Assembly: GCA_965219535.1 (NCBI GenBank)
Contig: CBDCNV010000002.1
Span: 1,410,001 to 1,442,000, forward strand
Direction of reading: 5' to 3'
Length of the DNA stretch: 32,000 nt
From: Opitutales bacterium
GTDB lineage: Bacteria; Verrucomicrobiota; Verrucomicrobiia; Opitutales; PNEW01
The position numbers were made by a program, and so were the translations under genes. Positions 2,653 through 32,000 of the stretch are shown piece by piece. A model generated the notes under the pieces. The model worked only from the letters and a program-made list of their open reading frames with translations. It did not search any database and was not told the DNA's origin. The stretch's first letter is position 1. Every line of letters begins with the position of its first letter.

Positions 2653-2687
2653 GGAGGGAATGTTCGGTTCACCGAACACCTCCCTCC
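2653..2687. repeat. Strong hairpin enclosing the stop codon of the SBP-permease gene
   Basis: GGAGGGA..GTTCGG-ttca-CCGAAC..TCCCTCC, a two-part stem of about 13 bp. No U-tract follows on the gene strand (GTCAAAAAG array instead). Confidence 0.7.
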
Positions 2688-5600: not shown

Positions 5601-5953
5601 TTGCCGATACTGTCCACTCCTTTGAGCACCACCGGCTCGGGCCCCACACGTTCAGCAACCGGTGGCAGTTTTCCCTCCTTTACCAAGTCAGTAAAAAGGG
5701 GTGATTCGGATTTTGGATACCACGTGCTCGATTCACCCACACTGTAGTCAACATCCTGTTGAATTTGAAAAATATCATCCTCGGTGAAACTCACATCTCT
5801 TGAATTATTTATGAATTCAATTTCCTCCGGGTCATAGTAAATGGGTTCCTCTTCCAGATCCGGTTTTAAGATATCACTCCAGAGATATAGAAAACCGAAA
5901 AAGCAACAACCCGTGAGGAAGAGAAGAAGGAAGGTTTTTAAAATTTTATTCAT
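2669..5953 (-). CDS. Fused ABC-transporter protein: N-terminal TM anchor + family-5 (Dpp/Opp-type) solute-binding domain + linker TM + DppB/OppB-type permease
   Basis: 1094-aa ORF. It has a TM helix at the N-terminus (FLLLFLTGCCFFGFLYLW) followed by an SBP_bac_5-like core (VPHVAKGWESSPDKREWTFYLRKGMKWSDGHPFTVDD). An extra TM helix follows (LIKYLFIGVFVCGIIMTGV, about nt 3700-3775). The canonical DppB-like permease then starts at RRLLIMIPSLL, with EAA-loop region YVITAIAKGLRPFKVLIKYPVRLALNP and C-terminal LDPRIR. Confidence 0.9.
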   Translation of the reverse strand: MNKILKTFLLLFLTGCCFFGFLYLWSDILKPDLEEEPIYYDPEEIEFINNSRDVSFTEDDIFQIQQDVDYSVGESSTWYPKSESPLFTDLVKEGKLPPVAERVGPEPVVLKGVDSIGNYGGTWLQVVGSPTEVGGVKGYYAGSTLVRFSALGYPIVPHVAKGWESSPDKREWTFYLRKGMKWSDGHPFTVDDILYWWEKEIPFNILGMETADWMDIGGKRGDVIKIDDHTVKFVFPQPYGTFLERLARATEYCAPRHYLEKYNPVIGDDALIEATLEERRLPSRSRLYYLLKLWSNPAIPRLWPWIYRTYNANPPQVFVRNPYYWAVDTEGNQLPYVDQLFYEVKNYNLIPVSAASGAITFLIWNMELSYTLLMSQREDNDYEVYHWFPATRSRYLIHANMNLLVDPDNPVTQMKHDLLIDKRFRQALSLAINRRQIIDIVYNGMGEPAQLSPGRESYFHHEKLHKSFTDYAPEQANQILDAIGLTGRDSEGYRTFKDGTRMTWHYSLPEGEDEGPTELVIEDWGRVGIRAIRRQPSLPLFSAEQNSRQVEISIWATESEFNPLVGPERFVGLTGLQAFGYFKWYLGGGLSGNPEATQFGGIEPPIDHPLRRSMILLESAFGATTREAQREQFHKIFDIAAENVWSINIGTAPPHPVVVKNDFKNVPRLAFYGNRFHPPAHAGLETYYFEDSYHSPGTIAQIKKELIEITPAPYGLVDAEGESKSVNRLGLLIKYLFIGVFVCGIIMTGVRHPYIGRRLLIMIPSLLIISVISFVIIQLPPGNFIDTKIMELQLRGSSSDMKEVDKLREIFNLDEPITEQYARWLGLYWFTSFEKKDQGLLQGHMGLSMENQNTVNEVVGDRILLTFLISLGTILFTWAVALPIGIYSAVRQYTLGDYLFTLIGFIGMSVPSFLLALILLYWSAKYLGINVTGLYSPEYAVQPEWTRGKIVDLLQHIWVPIVVLGVTGTASMIRVMRGNLLDELRKPYVITAIAKGLRPFKVLIKYPVRLALNPFISSIGAIFPQLVSGGAIVAMVLSLPTVGPLLLDALMIEDMYLAGSMLMVLSLFGVLGTLVSDLLLMWLDPRIRMEGGVR

Positions 5954-5983
5954 CTAAAGGAATAAGCTCATTGTGAGCTTATT

Positions 5984-6010
5984 CAGTGAACAGTAAACAG
6001 TGAACAGTGG
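5984..6010 (+). repeat. A module upstream of SBP-permease gene 1
   Basis: CAGTGAACAGTAAACAGTGAACAGTGG. Confidence 0.85.
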
Positions 6011-6037
6011 AGAATCAGTGTTAAATTTTAGTTGAGA

Positions 6038-6130: not shown

Positions 6131-6185
6131 TACCTAAAACTTGACACTTAAAACCTAACACGCGCGATGACTTCCGTCATCGCGC
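6131..6185 (-). terminator. Hairpin containing the stop codon + U-rich heptamer array 3' of the SBP-permease paralogue
   Basis: GCGCGATGA-cttccg-TCATCGCGC (6162-6185, 9-bp stem; the stop codon is in one arm). On the transcript it is followed by GUGUUAGGUUUUAAGUGUCAAGUUUUAGG. Confidence 0.45.
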
Positions 6186-9100
6186 TCCTCCTTCCATCCT
6201 AATCCTTGGATCGAGCCACATGAGCAAGAGGTCACTGACGAGGGTGCCTAAGACACCGAGCAGGCTGAGTACCATGAGCATCGATCCGGCCAGATACATA
6301 TCTTCTTTCATCAGGGCATCGAGCATTAAAGGCCCGACCGTTGGAAGGCTGAGCACCATCGCTACTATGGCGCCTCCTGAGATGAGTTGGGGAAAGATTC
6401 CACCGATGCTGGAAATGAATGGATTGAGCGCCAGGCGCACGGGATATTTCAGCAACAGCTTAAAGGGTCGCAGCCCCTTGGCCATCGCAGTAATGACATA
6501 AGGTTTTTTCAGCTCGTCCAACAGGTTACCGCGCATGACACGGATCATACCCGCGGTTCCAGTGACACCCAGAACGACAATCGGCACCCAGATGTGCTGC
6601 AACAAGTCGACAATCTTTCCTCGGGACCATCCAGGTTCAATCGCGTATTCGGGTGAAAATAGACCCGAGATATTAATCCCAAGATATTTCCCACTCCAAT
6701 AAAGTAGAATCAACGCAAGAAGAAAGCTGGGAATGCTCATCCCGATAAATCCGATCAAGGTGAAAAAATAATCACTCAAAGTATACTGGCGAACAGCTGA
6801 ATAGATGCCAATCGGCAAAGCGATCGCCCAGGTAAATAAAATCGTACCGAGTGAAATAAGAAAAGTGAGAAGGATGCGATCCCCAACCACTTCGTTGACC
6901 GTGTTCTGGTTCTCCATCGATAATCCCAGGTGACCCTGCAGTAAGCCCTGGTCTTTTTTTTCAAAGGAAGTAAACCAATTAAGGCCGAGCCAGTGCGCGT
7001 ATCGTTTAGCGATGGGCTTATCGAGGAGAAAGATCTCGCGCAGCTCTTCGATCTCATCGCTATTTATTTGACCTCCTTTTAATTGCAGCTCCAGGATTTT
7101 GGTCTCAATGAAATTCCCCGGAGGAAGCTGGATGATTACAAAAGAGATGACCGAGATGATAAGAAGGGTCGGGCCCAAAATGAGCAGCCGCCTTCCTATG
7201 TAGGGGTGCCTTACTCCAATCATTACCACTCCGCAGGTGAAAACACCGATAAATAAATACTTAATCAATTTTGCCAGGTGAATAACACTTTTCGATTTGC
7301 TCTTATCCTCCACTAGACCGTAAGGAGCGGGGGTTATTTCGAGTATTTCCTTTTTGATCTGAGCAACGGCTCCAGGTGATTCATCAGACTCTTCGAAGTA
7401 GTAGGTTTCTATTCCAGCCTGGGATGGCGGATTAAAGTAATTGCCATAGAATGCATTGCGCGGAATATTTTTAAAACCGTTTTTGACTACAACCGGGTGT
7501 GGTTGCGAGGTGCTTATATTGATCGACCAGACATTTTCCGCCGCAATGTCGAACACTTTATTGAAATGCTCACGTTGCGCTTCGCGCGTGGCCGCACCGA
7601 AAGCTGCTTCGGCTATTTCCATCGATCGCCTCATGGGATGATCGATCGGGGGCTCGATTCCTCCGAGTTGAGCAGCATCAGGATTGCCTGAAAGTCCACC
7701 TCTCAAATACCAGATATAGTAGCCGTATGCTTGGAGTCCCGTTAACCCGATAAAACGCGAGTATCCCAAAATAGGGTTGAATTCACTTTCTGAGGGCCAA
7801 ATGGAAAATTCCAATTGGCGTGATGTTTGTTTAAAGTAAAAAGAGAAAGCGCTGGCTGTTGTCGTATAGCGCGAATACCGACACGAGCCCAATCTTCAAT
7901 GATGAGCTCAGTCGGCCCTTCGAGCTCCCCCTCCGGGAGTGTAAAATTCCAGACCATGCGCGTACCATCCTTAAATGTGCGGTAGCCTCGCGCATCCCTA
8001 CCGGTTAGCCCTATCGCATCAAGCAGTTGATTGGCCCGGTCGGGCGCATAGTCGGTAAAGCTTTTATGTAATTTTTCATGGTGGAAAAACGATTCCCTCC
8101 CTGGTGATAACTGCGCGGGTTCCCCCACCCCATTGAATACGATGTCGATAATTTGCTGGCGATTGATGGCAAGGGAGAGCGCCTGGCGAAAGCGCTTGTC
8201 TATTAATAGATCATGTTTCATTTGGGTAACCGGATTATCAGGGTCGACCCTAAGATTTTGATTCGGATAGATGAGAAACCGCGAGCGTGTAGCAGGAAAC
8301 CAGTGATACACTTCATAGTCGTTTGTTTCGCGTTGTGACATGAGCAGGATATAGTTTAAATCCATACTTTCAAAAATCTTAAAGGTAATGGCCCCGTTGG
8401 CCGCTGCGATGGGAATCAAATTATAGTTTTTAACGTCGACAAATAATTGGTCCACATAGGGAAGCTGATTACCTTCGGTATCGACTGCCCAGTAGTAGGG
8501 ATTGCGGACAAATACCTGGGGAGGGTTGGCTTTATAAGTATGATATATCCAGGGCCATAGCCGTGGGTGTTCGGGATTGTTTGTTAATTTTAATATTACG
8601 TATAGGCTTCTACGCGATGGCAGTCTTCTCGCCTCGAGGGTAGCTTCGATGAGAGAATCATCACCGAGTTTCGGATGGTATTTTTCCAGGTAATGCCGCG
8701 GTGAGCAGAAATCACTGGATTTAGCCATGAAATCAAGAAACGATCCATAAGGTTGAGGAAAAATGAACTTTACGGTATAATCATCAATTTTTACAGTTTC
8801 TCCCACCTTTCCCCCCACTTTCATCCACTGGGGCGGTAAACTTCCCGGATATACAGGATCGGTTTCTCCATATAGACGGTAAAGGATATCGTCGGCAGTA
8901 AAAGGGTGACCATCGGACCACTTCATGCCTCGGCGCAAATAAAAAACCCATTCCCTCTTGTCGGGACTGGATTCCCAACCCTTGGCCACATGAGGCACAA
9001 TCGGGTAACCGAGCGGAGACCAGCGAACAAGTGTGGAACCTGAAGAGAAGGAAACAATTTTACGTATATCATTTTGTGATCCTGCCACTTCAAACCAGGT

Positions 9101-9463
9101 GCCGCCATAGCTACCGATACCTTCCACACCTTTAAACACTACCGGCTCGGGTCCTACCCGCTCTGCCACCAGGGGTAATTTGCCCTCGGCTACAAGTTCA
9201 GATAAGAGGGGTGACTCGGCTTGTGGATACCACGACGCGGTTTTCCCTTCACTGTAATCAACATCCAGCTGAATTTTGAAAAGATCATTTTCGGTGAAAC
9301 TCACATCTCTAGAATTTTCTATAAATTCAATTTCTTCCGGGTCATAGTAAATGGGTTCCTCTTCCAGATCCGGTTTTAGGATATCACTCCAAAGATAAAG
9401 AAATCCGAAAAAACAAAAACCCGTGAGGAGGAGGAGAAGGAAGGTTTTTAAAATTTTAATCAT
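6177..9463 (-). pseudogene. Frameshifted tandem paralogue of the fused SBP-permease gene
   Basis: ORFs 7742..9463 and 6177..7892 are collinear with the 1094-aa neighbour (roughly 75-80% aa identity by eye) but lie in different frames. The frame switch maps to the A5 run at 7838-7842 (T5 on the coding strand). Adding one T restores ...LFYFKQTSRQLEFSIW..., matching ...LFSAEQNSRQVEISIW... in the paralogue. The 3287-nt span is not a multiple of 3. This could be a real pseudogene, a homopolymer sequencing error or a slippage site. Confidence 0.8.
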
Positions 9464-9494
9464 CTAAAGGAATAAGCTCATCATGGGATGAATT

Positions 9495-9520
9495 CAGTGA
9501 ACAGTAAACAGTGAACAGTG
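9495..9520 (+). repeat. A module upstream of SBP-permease gene 2
   Basis: CAGTGAACAGTAAACAGTGAACAGTG. An inverted partner lies at 9740-9770. Confidence 0.85.
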
Positions 9521-9662
9521 AGAAAGTAGTGTCTAAGGTCAAAGGTCGGGGATGAATGGATGGTAGGAATGATGGAAGATTGAAATTCCCTTCGGTTCAA
9601 CACCAATTCTCCATACTTCCATACATCCAATATTCCATTTAAACCGCTGAACGGTGAGTCTA

Positions 9663-9770: not shown

Positions 9771-9780
9771 TAATTTTCTT

Positions 9781-9807
9781 CCTTTTATGACCTTTTGACT
9801 TTTTGAC
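9781..9807 (-). repeat. B module
   Basis: CCTTTTATGACCTTTTGACTTTTTGAC, followed by hairpin GCGCGC-tgat-GCGCGC. Confidence 0.8.
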
Positions 9808-11737: not shown

Positions 11738-11768
11738 GGGTTCAGGGTTCAGGGTTCAGGGTTCAGGG
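11738..11768 (+). repeat. CAGGGTT heptamer array (E module) = G-quadruplex-type motif (GGG-TTCA)x4-GGG
   Basis: GGG runs at 11738, 11745, 11752, 11759 and 11766. The IS left end starts within or at the last run. Confidence 0.9.
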
Positions 11769-13141
11769 TACAACCAGGACATGGTTTACAGATTTAGATC
11801 AAGACATGGTTTACACTTTGTGAGGGATGCTGAACGGTAATCGGGTTATATAGTTAAGTTAATGTTATGCGGTTTTAGAGGTTTGGCTGGCATTGTTGGG
11901 GCCGCAAGCGGCCCCAATGAAAGCAGCCGTTGAAAGGTCAATCTGACCGATTCTGAGAGTGGCAAAGTAAACATCGAAGTGTACCGTGTCTAGTGGTTTT
12001 AGTCCAACGCTCCAACCGGCGAGGGCGGTGGAGATAGGAATCTGGAAGCCATCGAGTTTGATAGACCCGCTTTTTGAGACCCGGCGAGTCATCAAATCAT
12101 AGCTGATATCGGCAGGAGTGCCACCGTAAGGATGAGAGCTGTGCTGATAGATTTCAGAGGGCGTGCTCATGGCAAGAGCCGCATGGGGGCGTTCTTCATT
12201 GAAGGTCTTGCGCCACAGATCGAAGGCCACCTGTTGGGTGCGAAGATCGTCCTGGGCATGTTTTTGCAACTCCTCTTTGATATCGCGATGGAGACGCTCA
12301 TGGGCACCGTTATCCTGGGGTTTACCCGGACGTCCACGCTCGAGATTGATCCCTAAGGCCAGCCACCAGGCCGCCAGTTTGCTCAGGCCCAGGACCGCAT
12401 TGGCACTGGCAAAGGGACTGCCGTTGTCGCTGCGGATGCAAGCGGGAAGTCCATAGCGTTCAAAGAGTTTTGTGAAGCATTCACGCACCGCTTCGCTACG
12501 GGCTGAACTGAGCACCCGCACCTCTAATACATAGCGGCTCCATTCATCCCGTACCGTCAAAGGTTCACAACGGTTGCCATCAACGGTGTGCCACCACCCT
12601 TTGAAGTCTACGCTCCACACTTCGTTACAGCCACTGGCCTTGACGCTGCGGTAAAGGCGTCCGCTTTTTTGAGCGCTTCTGCGCCGACGCTTTTGCACCA
12701 GTCCCGCACGTTCCAAGACCCGTTTCACGCTCGAGTCTGAGGGGGCCTTCCCGTAACGCCTCTGGTAAAGCTCGCGGATCTTGTAGGGGCCCCACGTCGG
12801 GTGATGATGCTTGAGTTTGATCAGCGTACATACTACTGATTCGGATAGTTCCTGAACACTTCCATGCGGTCGGCGTGAGCGCTCGTGCAACCCCTCCATC
12901 CCTTCGCTCAGGAAGCGCTTCTTCCATTTATACCCTGTCGGTCGGCTGATCCCGTAGTCTTCACACAGCTCGTTCATCTTTACTCCCGGTTGCATCGATT
13001 CCAGGGCGAATTGGTATCTTTGGTCCATTTTATTTGTTTCCTTCCATGACATCATACCCCTTACTTAGCATCCTTCTTTCTTTGGCAATCTGTAAAGGAT
13101 GTCCTGAACCTTTTGTGTAAAGAATGTCTTGAACCTATACC
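11767..13141 (-). mobile_element. IS481-like insertion sequence, complete copy (about 1375 bp)
   Basis: The left boundary is defined by where identity with the second copy begins (11767 = 31273). Imperfect terminal inverted repeats: GGTACAACCAGGACATGGTTTACAG (left) vs the reverse complement of the right end, GGTATAGGTTCAAGACATTCTTTACAC. Each end carries two 17-nt motifs CARGACATNNTTTACAS (11775-11791, 11800-11816, 13090-13106, 13115-13131). No clear target-site duplication seen. Confidence 0.8.
11865..13055 (-). CDS. IS481-family-like DDE transposase (HTH + rve integrase core)
   Basis: 396-aa single ORF. N-terminal HTH (ELCEDYGISRPTGYKWKKRF). DDE-type core segments WSVDFKGWW, IRSDNGSPF, HERLHRDIKEE. 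The true start may be the internal Met at MDQRY. Confidence 0.85.
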   Translation of the reverse strand: MMSWKETNKMDQRYQFALESMQPGVKMNELCEDYGISRPTGYKWKKRFLSEGMEGLHERSRRPHGSVQELSESVVCTLIKLKHHHPTWGPYKIRELYQRRYGKAPSDSSVKRVLERAGLVQKRRRRSAQKSGRLYRSVKASGCNEVWSVDFKGWWHTVDGNRCEPLTVRDEWSRYVLEVRVLSSARSEAVRECFTKLFERYGLPACIRSDNGSPFASANAVLGLSKLAAWWLALGINLERGRPGKPQDNGAHERLHRDIKEELQKHAQDDLRTQQVAFDLWRKTFNEERPHAALAMSTPSEIYQHSSHPYGGTPADISYDLMTRRVSKSGSIKLDGFQIPISTALAGWSVGLKPLDTVHFDVYFATLRIGQIDLSTAAFIGAACGPNNASQTSKTA

Positions 13142-13144
13142 GGT

Positions 13145-18282: not shown

Positions 18283-18313
18283 GTTTCAGAAAATGCGCGT
18301 CAGCGTTCTTCTA

Positions 18314-18346
18314 CCTTTTGACCTTTTGACTTTTTGACCTTTTGAC
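18314..18346 (-). repeat. B module, right arm of a large palindrome
   Basis: CCTTTTGACCTTTTGACTTTTTGACCTTTTGAC. Confidence 0.9.
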
Positions 18347-18521: not shown

Positions 18522-19367
18522 ATGAACAAGGAAACTTTCTCAAACCTTAAATTGTTGCTCTGCTCGGGCATATTAATCCTCACATTGGCCAGTTTAACGG
18601 GTTGCGCCAAAAAAGAGGAACCGACAGTTACCGAAGCTGAACAACCAACTGCAGAGCAAGCGATCGCCGAAGCGGAGCAAGCGATCGCCGAAGTAAAAGC
18701 GGAAATACCGGCTGCCCTTGCCGAAGCAGAGCAAGCGATCGCCGAAGTTAAAGCGGAACATCCGACTGCCGATGCAGAGCATCCGACCGAAGTAGCGGAA
18801 CACCCGACCGAAGAACACCCCACTGAAGAAGCGGAACACCCGGTCGCAGAAGCAGGAGAAGAGCATCTGACTGAGGAACATCCGACCGAAGAAGCAGAGC
18901 ATCCGACCGAGGAACACCCAGCTGAAGAAGCAGAACATCCGGAACACTCTGATGAAGAAGCGGAACATCCAGAACATCCGGCTGAAGAAAGCGATCAGAC
19001 CCAGGTACAACCCCAGCGTGAAGTGGGATTGGCAGACATTTCAGATGGCATCAAAAAGCATATCGCTGAATTATCCTCCCAATCCAGTGACGGTATGTTT
19101 CACGCAGATTATGACGGTACGGACCTCGCATTAACCCTCGTAAAGGTACACGATGAAAAATTGGCTGTGTTAGGTAGCGGTGCTTACTTTGCCTGCACCG
19201 ATCTCAAGGCCACTGACGGCAGCATCTACGACCTGGATTTTTTCCTCACCGGTGAGGCCGGTAATATGAAAGTTACCGAAACTGCGGTCCATAAAGACAA
19301 TGGTACGCCACTTTACGGTTGGAAACAAAGGGATGATGGCGTCTGGATAAAAAGTCCCTTGCAATAA
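18522..19367 (+). CDS. Lipoprotein with acidic His-rich repeat region and unknown C-terminal domain
   Basis: 281-aa ORF. Signal peptide with lipobox LASLTGC (Cys28). Residues about 38-158 are low complexity: three AEQAIAE units, then 12 EHP and 1 EHL triplets (13 His) embedded in Glu/Ala/Thr. A C-terminal domain of about 120 aa has no motif I recognise. Confidence 0.8.
   Translation: MNKETFSNLKLLLCSGILILTLASLTGCAKKEEPTVTEAEQPTAEQAIAEAEQAIAEVKAEIPAALAEAEQAIAEVKAEHPTADAEHPTEVAEHPTEEHPTEEAEHPVAEAGEEHLTEEHPTEEAEHPTEEHPAEEAEHPEHSDEEAEHPEHPAEESDQTQVQPQREVGLADISDGIKKHIAELSSQSSDGMFHADYDGTDLALTLVKVHDEKLAVLGSGAYFACTDLKATDGSIYDLDFFLTGEAGNMKVTETAVHKDNGTPLYGWKQRDDGVWIKSPLQ
18633..18995 (+). repeat. In-frame coding repeats of the lipoprotein (AEQAIAE x3, EHPxEE-type x about 12)
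   Basis: Nucleotide repeats GAGCAAGCGATCGCCGAAG (x3, each containing GCGATCGC) and GAACA(T/C)CCGACCGAAGAAGC-type units. They also generate spurious antisense ORFs 18494..18823 and 18594..19010. Confidence 0.85.
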
Positions 19368-20475: not shown

Positions 20476-20497
20476 GGGAAAATACCAGTGAACAGTG
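20471..20497 (+). repeat. M module
   Basis: GTGTCGGGAAAATACCAGTGAACAGTG (26 of 27 identical). Confidence 0.8.
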
Positions 20498-20552
20498 AAC
20501 AGTGAACAGTGAAAGAGCGCTGACGCGCGTGTTAAGTATTAAGTGTTAGGTA
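20486..20552 (+). repeat. Composite A-H-D module copy 1 (GTGAACA array + small GC hairpin + GTKTTAR array)
   Basis: (CAGTGAA)x3 CAGTGAAAGAGCGCTGACGCGCGTGTTAAGTATTAAGTGTTAGGTA. Confidence 0.85.
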
Positions 20553-20588
20553 TCGAAATCGGGATCGATATCGGTATCGGGTTTCGGG
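20549..20588 (+). repeat. P module (ATCG-rich)
   Basis: Shares the 19-nt core GGTATCGAAATCGGGATCG with 23541-23559. Confidence 0.65.
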
Positions 20589-23451: not shown

Positions 23452-23465
23452 CAGGGGAGGGGATT

Positions 23466-23535
23466 AGTAAACAGTGAACAGTGAACAGTGAACAGTGAAA
23501 GAGCGCTGACGCGCGCGTTAAGATTTAGGTTAAAG
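23466..23535 (+). repeat. Composite A-H-D module copy 2
   Basis: AGTAAACAGTGAACAGTGAACAGTGAACAGTGAAAGAGCGCTGACGCGCGCGTTAAGATTTAGGTTAAAG. Confidence 0.85.
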
Positions 23536-23568
23536 ATATCGGTATCGAAATCGGGATCGGGTGTCGAG
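23535..23568 (+). repeat. P module
   Basis: GATATCGGTATCGAAATCGGGATCGGGTGTCGAG. Confidence 0.65.
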
Positions 23569-25277: not shown

Positions 25278-25402
25278 ATCCAATTATGAATTAGGAGTTT
25301 AGAATTATGATGCGATGGCAGCTTTTCCATAGTGTATATTATAAATAATAAAAAAGAAACGATGACATTTAATTTCAATGTTTGACCCCTTTCCCGCGCC
25401 CC

Positions 25403-26854
25403 ATGAAGTCCAAAACCATCGCGTCAGTCGTCCTGCTACTGAGCGTTTTCGCAATGCCGCTAACCGCCACCGATCCCATCGCCATAGACTCGCGGCGGGA
25501 ACTGTTTATTGATCATCATTTGATCGGATCGCTCAACGGTGTGCGCCTCGTGTTGCATCGCCCGCAACCGCGCGAAATCGTCTTCGAGTTCGATCAGCCC
25601 TGGGAGGGACTCTACAGCGGGTACGAGACCGTGCTCAAAGACGGCGAGACCTACCGGTTCTATTATCGGGGGATGCCCGAAGCAAAACACGATCTCGATA
25701 CGGAAGTCATCTGTGTCGCGGATAGCAAAGACGGTATTCACTGGACGCGGCCCAAACTGGGCATATACGAAGTCCGCGGCACGAAAGACAACAACGTGGT
25801 GCTGGCGCGTAATCGCGGCTGCCACAACCTCGCACCGTTCATAGACACCAATCCGAATTGCCCGGCCGAAGAACGGTATAAAGCGCTGGGCGGGACCGGC
25901 GAACCGGGTCTGCTGGCCTTTGTATCGGCCGACGGTCTGCACTGGAAGCAACTCCAGGCGGACCCTGTAATCACCAAAGGCGCATTTGATTCCCAGAACA
26001 ACGCATTCTGGTCCGTCAGCGAAAAACAGTACGTTTGCTATTTCCGAGTCTTCCGGGATGGAATTCGTTGGATTGCGCGTACGACGTCGATGGATTTCGT
26101 CCACTGGACGGAACCGATCGACCTGGAGCTTGGCGGCCAGCCCCGCGAACACCTCTACACGAACCAGTTCGACCCCTACGTCCGAGCTCCGCACATCTAT
26201 CTGGGACTTCCTACGCGTTACCTGCCCGGGCGTCGTGTATTGACGGACGAGGAAGCCAAAGGGATCGGCACACCCACGAAATGGAACTACGTCGATGATA
26301 GTACGGACATCCTGCTTGCATCAGCACGCGGTGGTGACAACTTCCAGCGCACATTCATGGAGGCCTTTGTTCGGCCGGGAGCAGACCTGCAAAACTGGAC
26401 GTCACGAGCAAATTACGCGGCGCGCGGCATCGTGCAAACGGGCGAACGAGAATTGTCCCTCTTCGTGAAGCACCACTCCGGCTATCCCTCGAATCACGTC
26501 CAGCGCTATGTGATCCGACCGGACGGCTTTGTCTCCGTGCAAGCTCCTTACAACGGTGGCGAGTTGATCACCAAACCGTTCACCTTCACCGGCGCAAAGT
26601 TGTCGCTTAACTACGCCACTTCCGCTGTAGGTGGGATATTCGTCGAGATTCAGACTCCCGACGGTAAACCAATCGAAGGATTTGCACTTGCGGACTGCTT
26701 GGAAATGATCGGAGACCGGATATACCACACCGTAAACTGGAAAAAAGGTTCGGATGTGAATTCCCTGGCCGGCAAGCCCGTCCGAGTGAAGTTCGCAATG
26801 AAAGACGCCGACCTCTACTCGATGCAATTCACTAGCAGGGGAGGGACAAAGTGA
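25403..26854 (+). CDS. Secreted protein, predicted beta-propeller glycoside-hydrolase-like fold (function unknown)
   Basis: ORF 25382..26854. Start moved to ATG 25403 (MKSKTIASVVLLLSVFAMPLTA signal peptide). Repeated segments such as DQPWEG...YRFYYRG, SKDGIHWTRP, SADGLHWKQ and SMDFVHWTEP resemble blades of GH32/43-type propellers. The family assignment is from pattern memory only. Confidence 0.6.
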   Translation: MKSKTIASVVLLLSVFAMPLTATDPIAIDSRRELFIDHHLIGSLNGVRLVLHRPQPREIVFEFDQPWEGLYSGYETVLKDGETYRFYYRGMPEAKHDLDTEVICVADSKDGIHWTRPKLGIYEVRGTKDNNVVLARNRGCHNLAPFIDTNPNCPAEERYKALGGTGEPGLLAFVSADGLHWKQLQADPVITKGAFDSQNNAFWSVSEKQYVCYFRVFRDGIRWIARTTSMDFVHWTEPIDLELGGQPREHLYTNQFDPYVRAPHIYLGLPTRYLPGRRVLTDEEAKGIGTPTKWNYVDDSTDILLASARGGDNFQRTFMEAFVRPGADLQNWTSRANYAARGIVQTGERELSLFVKHHSGYPSNHVQRYVIRPDGFVSVQAPYNGGELITKPFTFTGAKLSLNYATSAVGGIFVEIQTPDGKPIEGFALADCLEMIGDRIYHTVNWKKGSDVNSLAGKPVRVKFAMKDADLYSMQFTSRGGTK

Positions 26855-26874
26855 ACGGTGAACAGTAAACAGTG
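26851..26874 (+). repeat. A module containing the stop codon of the preceding gene
   Basis: GTGAACGGTGAACAGTAAACAGTG. The TGA stop (26852-26854) is part of the first unit. Confidence 0.85.
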
Positions 26875-26902
26875 TACCGAGGGTATGTCCCGACATCTTC
26901 CA
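26874..26902 (+). repeat. G-element copy 11 (left end of MITE-like copy a)
   Basis: GTACCGA GGG-tatgt-CCC GACATCTTCCA. Confidence 0.9.
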
Positions 26903-27038
26903 TCCAGACCGAGCACCAAACATCAATTATCAAATCACAAATAAGCTCCAATGATTGAAATACCAATTCATGAAATAAATGAAAAGACAGTTTGGTTATT
27001 TATAATTGTAAATTGGATTTTATTTGAAATTTGTGATT

Positions 27039-27065
27039 GGGGGATGTCGGGCTTTGCCCTCGGTA
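27039..27065 (-). repeat. G-element copy 12 (right end of MITE-like copy a)
   Basis: Reverse complement reads TACCGA GGGC-aaa-GCCC GACATCCCCC. Confidence 0.85.
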
Positions 27066-27109
27066 GCTTTTTGTAATTTCTCGACTTGTCCTCGACTCCC
27101 CTGAACCCT

Positions 27110-27138
27110 GTACCGAGAGCGTAGCTCGACATCTTCCA
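27110..27138 (+). repeat. G-element copy 13
   Basis: GTACCGA GAGC-gta-GCTC GACATCTTCCA. Confidence 0.9.
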
Positions 27139-27149
27139 CCCTGAACCCT

Positions 27150-27177
27150 GTACCGAGGGTATATCCGACATCTTCCA
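27150..27177 (+). repeat. G-element copy 14
   Basis: GTACCGA GGG-tatat-CC GACATCTTCCA (one stem base missing). Separated from copy 13 by CCCTGAACCCTG. Confidence 0.85.
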
Positions 27178-27289
27178 CCGTGAACCGAGAGAGAAAAGAG
27201 AAGGAGTCAGACCCTGCATTTTCGCAATTATAATTTTGCAGGAACGCAGAGCCTAACCCCTTTAGACCTTCGTTAGTAATCACGCTCTC

Positions 27290-27844
27290 TTATTGATTAA
27301 TCTTAACCGTGACAGGTACCGTATTCTGTACCGTGTCAAAGATGACAGAGTGCTGGATAATCTCCTTTAACTCTTCTTCATCCGCATCAGATTGTATATT
27401 GAATCCAATCTCAATATCCTGAAACCCGGGACGCACCTTAGGATCTATTCCCAGTAAACCTTGAAGATCTAATTTTCCTTTAGCTTTTGATTTCATTTTA
27501 TATATCGTTATCCCTCTGGCAGCGGCATGATAGGCGATCGTCGTCGTTAAACATCCTGCTAGGGCATGCAGTAAATATTCAGCAGGATTCACGGCCTTGT
27601 CTGTTCCCAGAAGAGAAATAGGTTCATCATTGGTATATTCGAATTCCTGAGTCCGCGTTGTGTCTTCTTCCTTCGCTCCGTAGAAGCCTTTAAAGGTTGA
27701 TTTATTTATCGACCCATCGACCCAGGTGTTGTCAGCCCTGAATTCAAACTGGGCTAATTCAGGATCACTTTTCATGACTTCGATGTTTTCATTGAGTTGA
27801 GCGACGTCTACTCCGTTTACTTTTGTTTCTATTGTTTTGTTCAT
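27290..27844 (-). CDS. OsmC/Ohr-family peroxiredoxin-like protein
   Basis: 184-aa ORF with the conserved LLHALAGCLTTTIAYHAAARGI segment of the OsmC family. AT-rich compared with flanking genes. Confidence 0.8.
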   Translation of the reverse strand: MNKTIETKVNGVDVAQLNENIEVMKSDPELAQFEFRADNTWVDGSINKSTFKGFYGAKEEDTTRTQEFEYTNDEPISLLGTDKAVNPAEYLLHALAGCLTTTIAYHAAARGITIYKMKSKAKGKLDLQGLLGIDPKVRPGFQDIEIGFNIQSDADEEELKEIIQHSVIFDTVQNTVPVTVKINQ

Positions 27845-27878
27845 TTTTTGTCCTTTGTTGTGTTTTTATGGTTAATAT

Positions 27879-27892
27879 ACAGACATGTCTGT
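27879..27892. promoter_or_regulatory. Candidate TetR operator O2 (perfect palindrome ACAGACATGTCTGT) upstream of the osmC-like gene
   Basis: A perfect 14-bp palindrome lies in the 71-nt tetR-osmC spacer, 35 nt upstream of the osmC ATG. It has the same half-sites as the site upstream of tetR. Confidence 0.6.
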
Positions 27893-27915
27893 CTGTTTTA
27901 TTCGAAAAAAATATA

Positions 27916-28500
27916 TTATTTAATAAGCGACTCTACTTGCCTTATCGCGTGGCGTACAGGCCACAGTTCATGATATATCATCACCAGAGCAATCGCTCCC
28001 GTAAGTATGTTTAAGTAATCGTTTGTTAAGATTTCGACATCGAGATGTCTGTATTTTTTCCCGTCGGACTGTATAAGGTCAGATGAGATGTCTTTAATGA
28101 TTGCCTTCAAAGTTTCATAATGGAATTTACTCTCCTTTCTTACCGGATCTGCATGATTAGAGATCTCGGGCACCATACGAAGGAAACCGCAGCCGTGCAG
28201 CCCATTTTCTATAATCCATGGCTCAATACATTCAATCAAAGCCATAAACCTGGTCCGTGGAGTTTTCTTTTCGTGGATAGCAGCTTTTATATCCCGGATC
28301 TCCTTAATATTAAGATTGGTGATATACGCTAAGTTCAAGTGATCTTTAGTCGGAAAATGCGAATAGAATGTGGCCTTTGATACGTTTGCTTTCTTTATAA
28401 TTTCGTTCGTCCCGGTTTGATGATACCCCTGTTGGTAGAACAACTCTGTTGCCGTCTTCAAAATCCGGTCTCTCGCTGGACTGTCTTTCTTTACCATCAT
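27916..28500 (-). CDS. TetR/AcrR-family transcriptional regulator
   Basis: 194-aa ORF. N-terminal HTH RDRILKTATELFYQQGYHQTGTNEIIKKANVSKATFYSHFPTKDHL. It lies upstream of, and co-directional with, the OsmC-like gene. Confidence 0.9.
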   Translation of the reverse strand: MMVKKDSPARDRILKTATELFYQQGYHQTGTNEIIKKANVSKATFYSHFPTKDHLNLAYITNLNIKEIRDIKAAIHEKKTPRTRFMALIECIEPWIIENGLHGCGFLRMVPEISNHADPVRKESKFHYETLKAIIKDISSDLIQSDGKKYRHLDVEILTNDYLNILTGAIALVMIYHELWPVRHAIRQVESLIK

Positions 28501-28517
28501 TGAGCAAAGCTAAATAA

Positions 28518-28533
28518 GACAGACCTGTCTGTC
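28518..28533. promoter_or_regulatory. Candidate TetR operator O1 (GACAGAC-CT-GTCTGTC) upstream of tetR
   Basis: 7-bp inverted arms with a 2-nt centre, 18 nt upstream of the tetR ATG. It shares ACAGAC-NN-GTCTGT with O2. Confidence 0.6.
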
Positions 28534-28620
28534 AAGTATTTTTAAAAAAAAATGCCTATAAGCACAAACAGGTACTTTAACGTGTTAAATTTAAATAGGT
28601 TAGGACCTGTGTGGGGGGAT

Positions 28621-28646
28621 CAGTGAACAGTAAACGGTGAACAGTG
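28621..28646 (+). repeat. A module
   Basis: CAGTGAACAGTAAACGGTGAACAGTG. Confidence 0.85.
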
Positions 28647-28702
28647 GGAGAGTTGCGTGTTATTTCTAATGGAGATTATTATATTTCCCTGAACCCTGAA
28701 CC
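28639..28702 (+). repeat. Q module
   Basis: AACAGTGGGAGAGTTGCGTGTTATTTCTAATGGAGATTATTATATTTCCCTGAACCCTGAACC. Confidence 0.55.
28687..28702 (-). repeat. E module (C-strand)
   Basis: CCCTGAACCCTGAACC. Confidence 0.75.
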
Positions 28703-28727
28703 TCTTCATTCGTATATCGTTCTACCT

Positions 28728-28803
28728 GATATCCGACGTTTGATATCCGATGTTTGATGTGCAAGAAGTTAAATCAACATCGTATATCGCATATCAGATA
28801 TCA
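28728..28803. repeat. F module copy 3
   Basis: GATATCCGACGTTTGATATCCGATGTTTGATGT...ACATCGTATATCGCATATCAGATATCA, followed directly by the tail TAGATCGTATATCTTTC with no G-element. Confidence 0.75.
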
Positions 28804-28825
28804 TAGATCGTATATCTTTCTCCCT

Positions 28826-28885
28826 GTACCGAGGGCATAGCCCGCCTGTCGTCCATAGCCTTGTGCGACGGATGGACATCTTCCA
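28826..28885 (+). repeat. G-element copy 15, expanded (left end of MITE-like copy b)
   Basis: GTACCGA GGGC-ata-GCCC, then a 31-nt insert (GCCTGTCGTCCATAGCCTTGTGCGACGGATG, itself able to pair GTCCAT/ATGGAC), then GACATCTTCCA. Confidence 0.75.
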
Positions 28886-29015
28886 TTCAGACCGAGCACC
28901 AAACATCAATTATCAAATCACAAATAAGCTCCAATGATTGAAATACCAATTCATGAAATAAATGAAAAGACAGTTTGGTTATTTAATAATTGTAAATTGG
29001 ATTTTATTTGAAATT

Positions 29016-29041
29016 GGGGATGTCGGGCTTTGCCCTCGGTA
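29016..29041 (-). repeat. G-element copy 16 (right end of MITE-like copy b)
   Basis: Reverse complement reads TACCGA GGGC-aaa-GCCC GACATCCCC. Confidence 0.85.
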
Positions 29042-29109
29042 GTGATTTGATATTTTCTCGACTTCTCCCGGCATCTTCAACAGAGAAAATTATAAGTAAT
29101 TAAAAGAAG

Positions 29110-29166: not shown

Positions 29167-31167
29167 ATGAAAAACAAACTCAAGTGGGGTATCCTCGGAC
29201 CGGGGAGGATCGCAGATAAATTTGCTATTGGCGTGCGGGAATCTGCGCACAGTGAACTCATCGCGGTGGGAAGTCGCTCGCGCAAGCGGGCTGATAGTTT
29301 CGGAGATGCGCATGAGATTCCGAACCGCTACGGTTCCTATGAGAAACTCTTGGAGGACTCTGACGTCCATGCTGTATATATCGCTACGCCGCATCCTCTT
29401 CATGCCCTGTGGGCGATTCGAGCTGCGGAAGCGGGAAAACACATCCTCTGCGAAAAACCGATCGCAATCAACCACGCCGAGGCGATGGCCATCGTGGAGG
29501 CGGCATACAGGGGCGGTGTCTTTCTCATGGAGGCCTTCATGTATCGCTGCGCCCCTCAGACCGAGCGCATCGTCGAGCTGATTCAGGAAGGTGCGATTGG
29601 TGAGGTTCAAATGATCAAGGCGTCGTTTGGCTTTCATAGCCCCTACAATCTTGAGAGTCGAATTTTGAATAGAAATCTTGGAGGCGGGGGGATCCTGGAC
29701 ATAGGCTGTTACGCCGTGTCGATGGCTCGCCTGATCGCTGGTGTAGCTCGCGGGAAGGCTTTCGCCAACCCGATTAAGGTTGAAGCGTCGGGAAAGCTGG
29801 GTGACGAATCGAAGGTCGATGAGTATGCTGCCGCTCTCCTTACTTTCCCTGAAGACTTCATTGCCCAGGTGTCTACGAGTGTTCAGTTGAGTCAGGAGAA
29901 CACGGCGCAGATATTCGGGACGGAAGGGAACATACTCGTTCCCAATCCATGGACGGCAGCAAGCGGTGGCGGCCGTTGGTCCTTTACAGTCACGCGAACT
30001 TCAGGCGACGGTCCCGAGACGATTGAAGGCGACACTCCGAATTTGTACGGACTTGAAGCGGACAAAGTGGCCGAGGGTGTAGGGGCGGCGAAGAGGGAAT
30101 CACCCGCCATGAGCTGGGAAGATTCACTTGGGAACATGGAGACCCTGGACAGGTGGCGAGAAGCTATTGGTCTGGACTATCCGAAAGAAAGAATAACCTC
30201 CAAACGGCCCACCATTCACGGTCGGCCACTGAAAAAACTAACGGGCGCGCCCCTTACCTACGGACGGGTCGAAGGTATTGATAAACCCATATCCCGCCTC
30301 GTCATGGGAGTGGATAACCAGGAGAACCTGTCCCACGCCTCCATCATGTTTGATGATTTCATCGAACAGGGCGGCAACTGTTTCGACACCGCCTATATCT
30401 ACGGTCGCGGCATGCGGGAAAAGCTGCTCGGTCAGTGGATGAGAAATCGCGGCATCCGCGAAGATATCGTTCTTATCGTCAAGGGCTCACACAGTCCTCT
30501 TAACTTTCCGGAGTACGCCACAAAACAACTCTTCGAGAGCCTGGAGCACCTGCAGACCGACTACGCGGACATCTATTTTCTGCACCGGGACAATCTGGAT
30601 CTTCCTGCGGGGGATTTCGTCGAGGTTCTCAACGAACACTATCGAGCCGGACGCATTAAGGCATTTGGTGGATCCAACTGGACGACCGAACGCATCGACG
30701 AAGCCAACGCTTACGCCGATGAACATGGACTACAGCGGTTCACGGTGTGGAGCAACAACTTCAGCCTGGCGCGTATGGTCAATCCAGTCTGGGCCGGCTG
30801 CATTGCAGCTTCCGACTCGAAATCCCGGAAATGGTTAGAGAAGAATCAAATGCCACTCTTCCCCTGGTCGAGTCAGGCGCGTGGCTTCTTTACAGATCGC
30901 GCAGGGCCCGATAAACGGGACGACGAGCTCTTGGTCAGCAGTTGGTATTCAAAGGATAACTTTAAAAGACGCGAAAGAGCGATCGAGCTCGCTGAGAAAA
31001 AAGGCGTCCTCCCCATCAACATCGCGCTGGCCTACGTCCTCTGTCAGCCTTTCCCCACCTTCCCACTCTTCGGTCCGCGCGTCCTCAGTGAAACCCGCAC
31101 CTCCATCCCCGCCGTAAATATCTCCCTTACCCCCGAGGAACTCCAGTATCTAAATCTGGAAGCGTAA
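29167..31167 (+). CDS. Fusion protein: Gfo/Idh/MocA oxidoreductase (N-terminal half) + aldo-keto reductase (C-terminal half)
   Basis: 666-aa ORF. The N-terminal half has KWGILGPGRIADKF and the EKP motif (ILCEKPIA). The C-terminal half has AKR segments CFDTAYIYGRGMREKLLGQWM, IVLIVKG, DIYFLHRD and GGSNW. Confidence 0.85.
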   Translation: MKNKLKWGILGPGRIADKFAIGVRESAHSELIAVGSRSRKRADSFGDAHEIPNRYGSYEKLLEDSDVHAVYIATPHPLHALWAIRAAEAGKHILCEKPIAINHAEAMAIVEAAYRGGVFLMEAFMYRCAPQTERIVELIQEGAIGEVQMIKASFGFHSPYNLESRILNRNLGGGGILDIGCYAVSMARLIAGVARGKAFANPIKVEASGKLGDESKVDEYAAALLTFPEDFIAQVSTSVQLSQENTAQIFGTEGNILVPNPWTAASGGGRWSFTVTRTSGDGPETIEGDTPNLYGLEADKVAEGVGAAKRESPAMSWEDSLGNMETLDRWREAIGLDYPKERITSKRPTIHGRPLKKLTGAPLTYGRVEGIDKPISRLVMGVDNQENLSHASIMFDDFIEQGGNCFDTAYIYGRGMREKLLGQWMRNRGIREDIVLIVKGSHSPLNFPEYATKQLFESLEHLQTDYADIYFLHRDNLDLPAGDFVEVLNEHYRAGRIKAFGGSNWTTERIDEANAYADEHGLQRFTVWSNNFSLARMVNPVWAGCIAASDSKSRKWLEKNQMPLFPWSSQARGFFTDRAGPDKRDDELLVSSWYSKDNFKRRERAIELAEKKGVLPINIALAYVLCQPFPTFPLFGPRVLSETRTSIPAVNISLTPEELQYLNLEA

Positions 31168-31272: not shown

Positions 31273-32000
31273 GGTACAACCAGGACATGGTTTACAGATT
31301 TAGATCAAGACATGGTTTACACTTTGTGAGGGATGCTGAACGGTAATCGGGTTATATAGTTAAGTTAATGTTATGCGGTTTTAGAGGTTTGGCTGGCATT
31401 GTTGGGGCCGCAAGCGGCCCCAATGAAAGCAGCCGTTGAAAGGTCAATCTGACCGATTCTGAGAGTGGCAAAGTAAACATCGAAGTGTACCGTGTCTAGT
31501 GGTTTTAGTCCAACGCTCCAACCGGCGAGGGCGGTGGAGATAGGAATCTGGAAGCCATCGAGTTTGATAGACCCGCTTTTTGAGACCCGGCGAGTCATCA
31601 AATCATAGCTGATATCGGCAGGAGTGCCACCGTAAGGATGAGAGCTGTGCTGATAGATTTCAGAGGGCGTGCTCATGGCAAGAGCCGCATGGGGGCGTTC
31701 TTCATTGAAGGTCTTGCGCCACAGATCGAAGGCCACCTGTTGGGTGCGAAGATCGTCCTGGGCATGTTTTTGCAACTCCTCTTTGATATCGCGATGGAGA
31801 CGCTCATGGGCACCGTTATCCTGGGGTTTACCCGGACGTCCACGCTCGAGATTGATCCCTAAGGCCAGCCACCAGGCCGCCAGTTTGCTCAGGCCCAGGA
31901 CCGCATTGGCACTGGCAAAGGGACTGCCGTTGTCGCTGCGGATGCAAGCGGGAAGTCCATAGCGTTCAAAGAGTTTTGTGAAGCATTCACGCACCGCTTC
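31273..32000 (-). mobile_element. IS481-like insertion sequence, second copy (truncated by window end)
   Basis: 31273..32000 appears identical to 11767..12494 (offset 19506), in the same orientation. The left flank differs (GTTAGGGTC vs GGTTCAG). Confidence 0.9.
31371..32000 (-). CDS. IS481-family-like transposase, C-terminal part (runs off window)
   Basis: The translation of 31371..31994 is identical to the C-terminal 206 residues of the 11865..13055 product. Confidence 0.9.
   Translation of the reverse strand, partial: EAVRECFTKLFERYGLPACIRSDNGSPFASANAVLGLSKLAAWWLALGINLERGRPGKPQDNGAHERLHRDIKEELQKHAQDDLRTQQVAFDLWRKTFNEERPHAALAMSTPSEIYQHSSHPYGGTPADISYDLMTRRVSKSGSIKLDGFQIPISTALAGWSVGLKPLDTVHFDVYFATLRIGQIDLSTAAFIGAACGPNNASQTSKTA

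Follow-up and report, generated by a model that had tools for sequence, protein, structure and literature searches.

The 32,000-nucleotide window analysed here (contig CBDCNV010000002.1 of the Opitutales assembly GCA_965219535.1, positions 1,410,001–1,442,000) contains, towards its end, a TetR–OsmC operon enclosed by two nearly identical direct repeats, E1 and E2. The operon is probably a self-contained unit residing in a strain-specific segment of about 6.1 kb that was recombined into a mosaic spacer, with E1 and E2 as sister copies generated by a recent copying or conversion event. The repeat itself, E, appears from its sequence to be a lineage-specific spacer repeat, rare and local, rather than a demonstrated mobile element with hairpin ends. 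A first-pass annotation of the window had instead described an AT-rich cassette between two copies of a unit resembling a MITE (a transposable element of the miniature inverted-repeat type), with inverted hairpins, the G-elements, as its termini. For the present analysis the window was extended past its end by means of the ENA contig ERZ25067264 ctg828868 (99.8% nucleotide identity over the shared 14 kb), the merged locus measuring 38.5 kb; L-numbers (L001, L010, L041 etc.) are the labels of fetched loci.

E1 (26892–27066) and E2 (28875–29042), located by a repeat search and pairwise alignment, lie in direct orientation, 1983 nt apart, and differ by one substitution (C at 26904, T at 28887), a 1-nt indel and an 8-nt indel, the very counts of the first-pass annotation. 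Also as described there, each copy has a G-element on either side, in plus orientation on the left and in minus orientation on the right, and the two copies enclose only the OsmC (PF02566) and TetR (PF00440) genes, each preceded by a palindrome. The left G-elements, however, are not equivalent, as 3 of 17 positions differ and that of E2 carries a nested 31-nt insertion. The two cores are 100% identical over the aligned core columns, in comparison with 76–96% for all other pairs in the family, and approximately 99 nt of E1 and E2 are identical without interruption. The high-identity tract extends from within the left G-element to the outer edge of the right one, beyond which about 26 nt are still homologous at only ~80% identity. 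Since mismatches amount to 1/167 in the core versus 8/42 in the flanks (Fisher p = 1e-5), the near-perfect identity of the two copies has the character of a patch. It may be inferred that the patch arose by a recent event of copying or gene conversion, in which neighbouring spacers took part and the shared G-element sequences served as anchors; this would be more likely than the transposition of a unit with terminal inverted repeats at its ends.

Comparison with related genomes shows that the TetR–OsmC pair is strain-specific and non-ancestral at this position. The gene to its left, encoding a conserved 483-aa protein, is directly followed by an acetyltransferase gene in three relatives (L010, L041 and L043; 93–95% nucleotide identity across the PhyH–RraA–483-aa block), and in L011 by an esterase gene and then by a gene for a fusion of GFO/IDH/MocA and aldo-keto-reductase domains (GFO/AKR). 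In the window genome this slot holds about 6.1 kb of additional DNA (26847–32957 in merged coordinates) comprising E1, OsmC–TetR, E2, GFO/AKR, an insertion sequence (IS) of the IS481 family and a third E copy, E3, the segment being bounded by E1(+) and E3(−) in inverted orientation. The operon is found elsewhere in a close relative (L013–L015), at an unrelated site (OsmC 91% identical in amino-acid and 89% in nucleotide sequence), and the homology between the two loci is confined to the operon block, with E outside the shared segment and no E near the second locus. The suggestion in the first-pass annotation that the pair had been acquired or moved is therefore borne out by synteny. In a collection of 5.8 billion proteins the second locus is the only other one of its type and, as the nearest OsmC homologue outside the lineage is only 58% identical, no donor can be named.

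The junctions of the segment are instructive. In L010, L011 and L041 the stop codon of the 483-aa gene is directly followed by M, a MITE-like element of ~132 nt. The segment replaced about 105 nt of M together with the last 8 nt of the 483-aa gene, so that its insertion was not a clean transposition. Of M, the window genome keeps only the right inverted repeat, which lies at the right junction, joined there to E3 at its truncated end, just upstream of the acetyltransferase gene, and the homology of the 483-aa gene to L010, L011, L041 and L043 stops at 26843–26846, 8–11 nt before its stop codon. Between these related genomes, at 93–95% nucleotide identity, homology breakpoints fall within 0–90 nt of coding ends; each homology block corresponds to a single gene or operon, with the intervening spacers replaced entirely. 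GFO/AKR orthologues (90–91% nucleotide identity) are found in three other contexts (L011, L039, L040 and L042), with homology from the start codon. Recombination would have brought the ~6.1-kb segment into the spacer that separates the 483-aa and acetyltransferase genes, in a very plastic accessory region, and the operon would have reached the slot as part of the segment or alongside it.

Within the inserted segment, the ~170-nt direct repeats, with ~99 nt identical without interruption, could allow the 1,983-bp unit to be deleted in a RecA-dependent manner, and the inverted partners E3 and E4 could be substrates for inversion. The loop-out between the repeats proposed in the first-pass annotation is thus mechanistically possible, but no deletion variant was seen: all three contigs with the RraA, PhyH and MlrC genes of the strain also carry TetR, OsmC and GFO/AKR, and a single-E junction was found in none of the relatives.

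The operon block, of about 1.3 kb, appears to be an ordinary self-contained TetR-repressed OsmC (peroxiredoxin-like) unit with a putative palindromic operator before each gene. Like other pairs of a TetR repressor and an adjacent effector, it combines an OsmC/Ohr-family effector with 16–18-nt palindromes before both genes, both of the ACAGAC..GTCTGT type, and keeps this layout at the second locus; nothing unusual was detected in this operon in comparison with such systems. The contrast in base composition between the pair and its flanks, on which the cassette proposal partly rested, is real (41.2–41.3% GC for TetR and OsmC, with the 483-aa gene at 56.3% and GFO/AKR at 54.9%), but it is not anomalous. 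Relative to 125 open reading frames (ORFs) from ~190 kb of the window genome, fetched around identical IS481 transposase copies and averaging 48.3 ± 4.4% GC, the pair has a GC z-score of −1.6 and z-scores for GC at third codon positions of −0.4 (TetR) and −1.4 (OsmC), and the flanking genes score +1.8 (483-aa gene) and +1.5 (GFO/AKR). The contrast is sharp because opposite tails of one broad distribution adjoin, and the pair, lying within the host distribution, shows no compositional sign of foreign origin. Indeed, the acetyltransferase gene is more AT-rich (38% GC, z = −2.4), yet syntenic in three relatives, so that low GC does not mark recent acquisition here.

The E family, as defined by the alignment of its copies, consists of ten members in three genomes. 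E3 and E4, which lie past the window end, are inverted with respect to E1 and E2 and flank the acetyltransferase gene, which is frameshifted; in a related genome (L039/L040) four copies occupy successive spacers upstream of the GFO/AKR orthologue, and L041 contains two, one of which is orthologous to E4. Common to the family is only a ~130-nt AT-rich core (28% GC) with inverted arms of its own, CAAATCACAAATAA..TCCAA pairing with TTGGA..TTATTTGAAATTTG, which are the most conserved part of the element. The right G-element, a variant with a CAAAG loop that in the window genome occurs only beside E cores, accompanies the core together with a ~27-nt extension in seven copies and is missing in the two L041 copies (E9 and E10). 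A left G-element accompanies E1 and E2, each with a subtype of its own, and none of E3–E10. The orthologous site occupied by E4 and E10 has kept its core in both genomes, but has the G-element in only one of them. The ends of the copies are ragged (E3, E4, E6 and E8 are truncated at different points), no target-site duplication was found in the flanks of the aligned copies, and where orthologous filled and empty spacers can be compared (L010 and L043 versus the window genome and L041) replacement affects the entire spacer, with no clean interruption. A MITE-like unit ended by inverted G-elements is therefore not supported by the family as a whole.

The distribution of E is restricted in the sampled DNA. 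The core does recur beyond E1 and E2, as the first-pass annotation had considered, but the window genome accounts for four of the ten copies and these all lie within 7 kb; none was found in the other 26 kb of the window or in ~210 kb fetched around ten other IS481 copies (the ten loci include two that overlap the window and two that nearly duplicate each other). The copies in the relatives are also clustered. A 20-mer from the core gave only eight chance matches, in unrelated taxa, among the GTDB species representatives, which evidently either lack the window genome or represent it by a genome without E, and a 21-mer conserved in E1–E4 gave 12 matches in JGI metagenomes, all limited to the seed. 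Within the sampled DNA, E is a low-copy, locally clustered repeat of a narrow lineage.

The G-elements, on the other hand, constitute an independent dispersed family resembling REPs. Repetitive extragenic palindromes (REPs) and their mosaic (BIME) or doublet (REPIN) forms have been described (PMC2817692, PMC3116915, PMC3337134, PMC3733652), including families reported in Planctomycetes (PMC3733652). A Hamming-distance scan of the merged locus identified 20 G-elements, of which 13 have no E core beside them; shuffled sequence gave none. They are GC-rich imperfect palindromes of ~28 nt that form hairpins, are strictly intergenic, lying in the spacers between called genes, and are dispersed in many copies on both strands, in BIME-like mosaic spacers, in this genome and also in relatives. 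They differ from REPs in starting with GTAC or CTAC instead of the 5′ GTAG or CGTC tag. The resemblance of E1 and E2 to REPINs, which lies in the two inverted hairpins around a spacer, is superficial: the spacer of E is a 130-nt AT-rich palindrome that is also found without one or both hairpins, the copy number is low, and the doublet exists only in E1 and E2, where the left hairpin, with its 3/17 mismatches and 31-nt insertion, falls outside the high-identity tract.

The spacers of the region are mosaics of short modules, namely REP-like G-elements, heptamer or octamer arrays, the 132-nt M and the low-copy E. The sampled spacers draw on a small vocabulary that includes (GTGAACA)n, (CCCTGAA)n, (TTGACYTT)n, (GGTATCG)n, TGATATCCGAYGTT, and GAAAGAGCGCTGACGCGCG followed by GTTAAGT-type heptamers; examples in the window are found at 2315–2416, 2608–2660, 5983–6032, 9494–9543, 9771–9807, 18302–18346, 20485–20574, 23459–23560 and 28615–28760, and the same modules recur in relatives. 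Regions with housekeeping genes (L035 and L036) contain far fewer G-elements. The long form of the G-element, seen to the left of E2, has a second 31-nt hairpin inserted between the G-element hairpin and its GACATCTTCCA tail. It is also present at L011 1358–1404 and at L041 14164–14225 and 16355–16414 (91–95% identity), and its recurrence in other genomes identifies it as a subfamily and not a one-off insertion.

It has to be considered whether E, alone or with G-elements, is nevertheless a non-autonomous element of the MITE or REPIN type, moved in trans by a transposase whose gene lies elsewhere, and whether an E1/E2 composite carried the TetR–OsmC pair or can move it. Such an origin would agree with the small size of E (~130–200 nt), its AT-rich, non-coding and intergenic nature, its conserved inverted arms, the stable folding of the full unit (z = −4.8), the REPIN-like layout of E1 and E2, with two inverted REP-like hairpins around a spacer (PMC3337134, PMC3116915), and the inverted E copies at the ends of the 6.1-kb insert. 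Furthermore, copies at non-orthologous sites in different genomes are 92–96% identical (E1/E5 and E3/E9), which implies movement of some kind, with or between spacers. These features have to be set against the missing target-site duplications, the ragged ends of E3, E4, E6 and E8, the poor conservation of the G-element termini in the family and the few, clustered copies in the sampled DNA. E is, moreover, outside the segment shared with the second TetR–OsmC locus, and the insertion removed part of M and of the 483-aa gene. A source of transposase is equally lacking in the sampled DNA: E has no similarity to the IS481 copies of the window, no other transposase with E-like ends and no related autonomous IS was found in the fetched loci, and their gene tables list neither a PF01797-type gene (RAYT, Y1 transposase) nor another candidate transposase. 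The definition of a MITE is much better matched by M, with its perfect 23-nt terminal inverted repeats, length of ~132 nt and multiple copies. Overall, a mobile E is considered unlikely.

A second explanation for the direct repeats is that a circle carrying TetR–OsmC and one E integrated, in the manner of Campbell, by homologous recombination at a resident E. Direct repeats around a self-contained module are the expected product of such an event, and the acetyltransferase gene is likewise enclosed by E copies in direct orientation (E3 and E4). No E lies near the only other known copy of the operon, however, and the diverged homologous flanks and different left G-element subtypes would require an incoming E that almost matched the resident core and yet differed from it at the edges. 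Moreover, E4, with its orthologue in L041, is ancestral at its site, and the acetyltransferase gene is syntenic in relatives without any E, so that flanking by E does not mark integration events. Integration of a circle therefore appears improbable, slightly more so than the movement of E in trans, and a copy or conversion event between neighbouring spacers is retained as the probable origin of E1 and E2.

A function of E tied to its neighbouring genes, for example as a promoter or terminator, a platform for nucleoid proteins, a small RNA or a gene for a membrane peptide of 25–50 aa, was also considered. It could be read from the ORFs of 41–62 aa that gene callers place inside several copies, an in-frame 9-nt deletion in E4, a σ70-like match and a terminator-like hairpin inside E1, and the conservation of the inverted arms. 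No reading frame is conserved across the copies, however: a stop interrupts E6, a frameshift separates E1 from E2, and the ATG of the longer frame is replaced by ACG in E3 and E4. A small gene for a 25-aa or ~45-aa peptide was accordingly rejected, as no frame survives in all copies, and E is regarded as non-coding because every reading frame is broken in some of them. No Rfam family was matched anywhere in the window, and RNAalifold detected no compensatory pairs in nine E copies, which is evidence neither for nor against a selected structure. Promoter-like matches are no commoner in the region than in shuffled sequence, and E sits between convergent, divergent and tandem genes at varying distances. 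A functional E is, as a consequence, regarded as very unlikely. A rule of orientation, by which E would be antisense to its cargo, was also rejected as uninformative, since for seven of eight copies the adjacent genes are convergent or divergent, or a neighbour is not seen.

Several points weigh against the preferred explanation, a recombined segment with E1 and E2 as recent sister copies. The census of E covers the sampled loci, and thus a part of the genome; the identity of some E copies at non-orthologous sites equals or exceeds that of orthologous genes, which gives true mobility some scope; and the flanks behind the contrast in identity are short (42 nt). The sequence alone would fit gene conversion and a short duplicative copy alike, and would be compatible with more than one order of arrival of the three gene units and the IS.

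Taken more broadly, the G-elements, E, M and the heptamer arrays could be recognition or anchor sites of a dedicated gene-shuffling process that carries single genes or operons as units from spacer to spacer, cassette-like yet without an integron integrase, in which E1(+) and E3(−) would mark the ends of an insert. A hint in this direction is that the homology blocks are single genes or operons and that TetR–OsmC, GFO/AKR and the acetyltransferase gene recur in different contexts, but the probability assigned to such a process is very low. The resemblance to integron cassettes lies in gene-sized units between direct repeats that are imperfect palindromes, with accessory AT-rich cargo (TetR–OsmC and the acetyltransferase gene). 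In contrast to such cassettes, E also flanks transporter genes of 680–1064 aa in L039, and the TetR–OsmC cargo has a putative promoter and operators of its own. No GTTRRRY/RYYYAAC core sites were found at the ends of the E consensus, and the gene tables covering the window and its flanks contain no integron integrase or tyrosine recombinase.

The second TetR–OsmC locus has features of its own. At L013/L014/L015 9183–20471 the TetR–OsmC homologue heads a low-GC (39–45%) run of at least 13 small same-strand accessory genes, including several acetyltransferases, glyoxalases, a metallophosphatase, a methyltransferase, a guanylate cyclase, a sulfotransferase, an APH and a HIT protein. The run is arranged like a cassette array, but attC-like repeats were not found in it. 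This arrangement prompted an integron/attC reading, which was rejected because there is no E or other repeat family between the genes, no attC core site and no integrase. A 26-nt motif, AAAACCTNTTGGCTAATCTAATGTTA, is present in four gene-to-gene gaps of the run and overlaps the called start codon at 18284.

The locus exemplifies gene-scale plasticity in an uncultured marine lineage, with a stress operon, an oxidoreductase gene and an IS dropped into a spacer, and with spacer repeats homogenized around the operon. It also calls for caution, since direct repeats around a low-GC pair mimic a mobile cassette, whereas ten copies and five relatives reveal no defined mobile unit. The wider pattern, in which synteny breaks at gene ends and the spacers are built from shared repeat modules, may bear on the scrambling of gene order genome-wide. 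The features of the region are listed in Table 1.

Table 1. Features of the TetR–OsmC region and its immediate neighbours (window coordinates).
Feature	Position	Strand	Remarks
483-aa hypothetical gene	25403–26854	+	Conserved, no Pfam domain; left anchor of the variable slot
Heptamer array (GTGAACR)n	26849–26874	+	Mosaic spacer repeat family; copies at 5983, 9494, 20485, 23471, 28620
Short-form G-element, REP-like hairpin	26875–26902	+	Outside the E unit; 3/17 differences from E2 counterpart; none in E3–E10
E1 core	26907–27039	+	Non-coding, AT-rich (28% GC), conserved internal inverted arms
E-linked G-element variant of E1	27040–27066	−	CAAAG loop (GGGGATGTCGGGCTTTGCCCTCGGTAG)
E1 right extension (CTTTTTGTAATTTCTCGACTTGTCCTC)	27067–27093	+	Also in E3, E5, E6, E7
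(CCCTGAA)n heptamers with two G-elements	27099–27190	+	G-elements at 27111–27139 and 27151–27179
TetR–OsmC operon block, self-contained	27273–28586	−	Sole stretch common to second locus (89% nucleotide identity; L013/L014/L015 9183–10488)
OsmC-family gene, 184 aa	27290–27844	−	Pfam PF02566, E = 5e-16
Palindrome ACAGACATGTCTGTCTGT upstream of osmC	27879–27896		Putative TetR operator; conserved in L013
TetR-family regulator gene, 194 aa	27916–28500	−	Pfam PF00440, E = 8e-17
Palindrome GACAGACCTGTCTGTC upstream of tetR	28518–28533		Putative autoregulatory operator; conserved counterpart at L013 9239–9258
Mosaic spacer	28615–28826	+	GTGAACA heptamers, CCCTGAA heptamers, TGATATCCGAYGTT repeats
Long-form G-element	28827–28885	+	Nested 31-nt hairpin insertion; own repeat subtype
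E2 core	28890–29015	+	
E-linked G-element of E2	29016–29042	−	CAAAG loop
E2 right extension	29043–29068	+	Diverged (~80% identity to that of E1)
GFO/IDH/MocA–aldo-keto-reductase fusion gene	29167–31167	+	666 aa; in the 6.1-kb segment
IS481-family insertion sequence	31273–32000	−	Runs off window end; identical to copy at 11767–13142

The 483-aa protein has more than 7,800 homologues in metagenome-assembled genomes (MAGs) of Planctomycetota and Verrucomicrobiota, with 65–96% identity among the top 120, and its best named homologues are in Planctomycetaceae and Pirellulales MAGs; it thus represents a hypothetical family that is widespread and well conserved. The acetyltransferase gene (L001 4909–5458, past the window end) is split into ORFs of 112 and 83 aa; L010 and L041 retain an intact version (182 aa), and in L043 it is shortened to 100 aa. 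It is thus probably a decaying gene.

Element M, with its terminal inverted repeats (GGGGTCAAACGTAGAATTTAAAT), is multi-copy in the lineage, with copies at L010 11450–11585, L011 11399–11535, L041 11400–11533, L001 1560–1845 and L029 1984–2118, a remnant at L001 5493–5512 and a degenerate match at 25368–25387 of the window. The esterase ORF of L011 begins inside the right inverted repeat of M. The IS481-family element is ~1,376 nt long and is represented by at least ten identical copies in the assembly of the window and a sister assembly (including L028 and L031–L037); a (GTKTTAR)n heptamer array abuts its left end in most copies, reflecting either an insertion preference or a part of the element.

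Further upstream in the window, 2669–5953 and 6177–9463 are tandem paralogues (74–86% nucleotide identity) of a gene for a 1094-aa fused SBP_bac_5/BPD_transp_1 ABC transporter, the second of which is represented by two ORFs (571 and 573 aa), apparently as a result of a frameshift. The ORF at 18522–19367 contains many degenerate in-frame repeats with periods of 21–63 nt, of the GAACAYCCGACCGAAGAAGC type, and encodes a low-complexity repeat protein.

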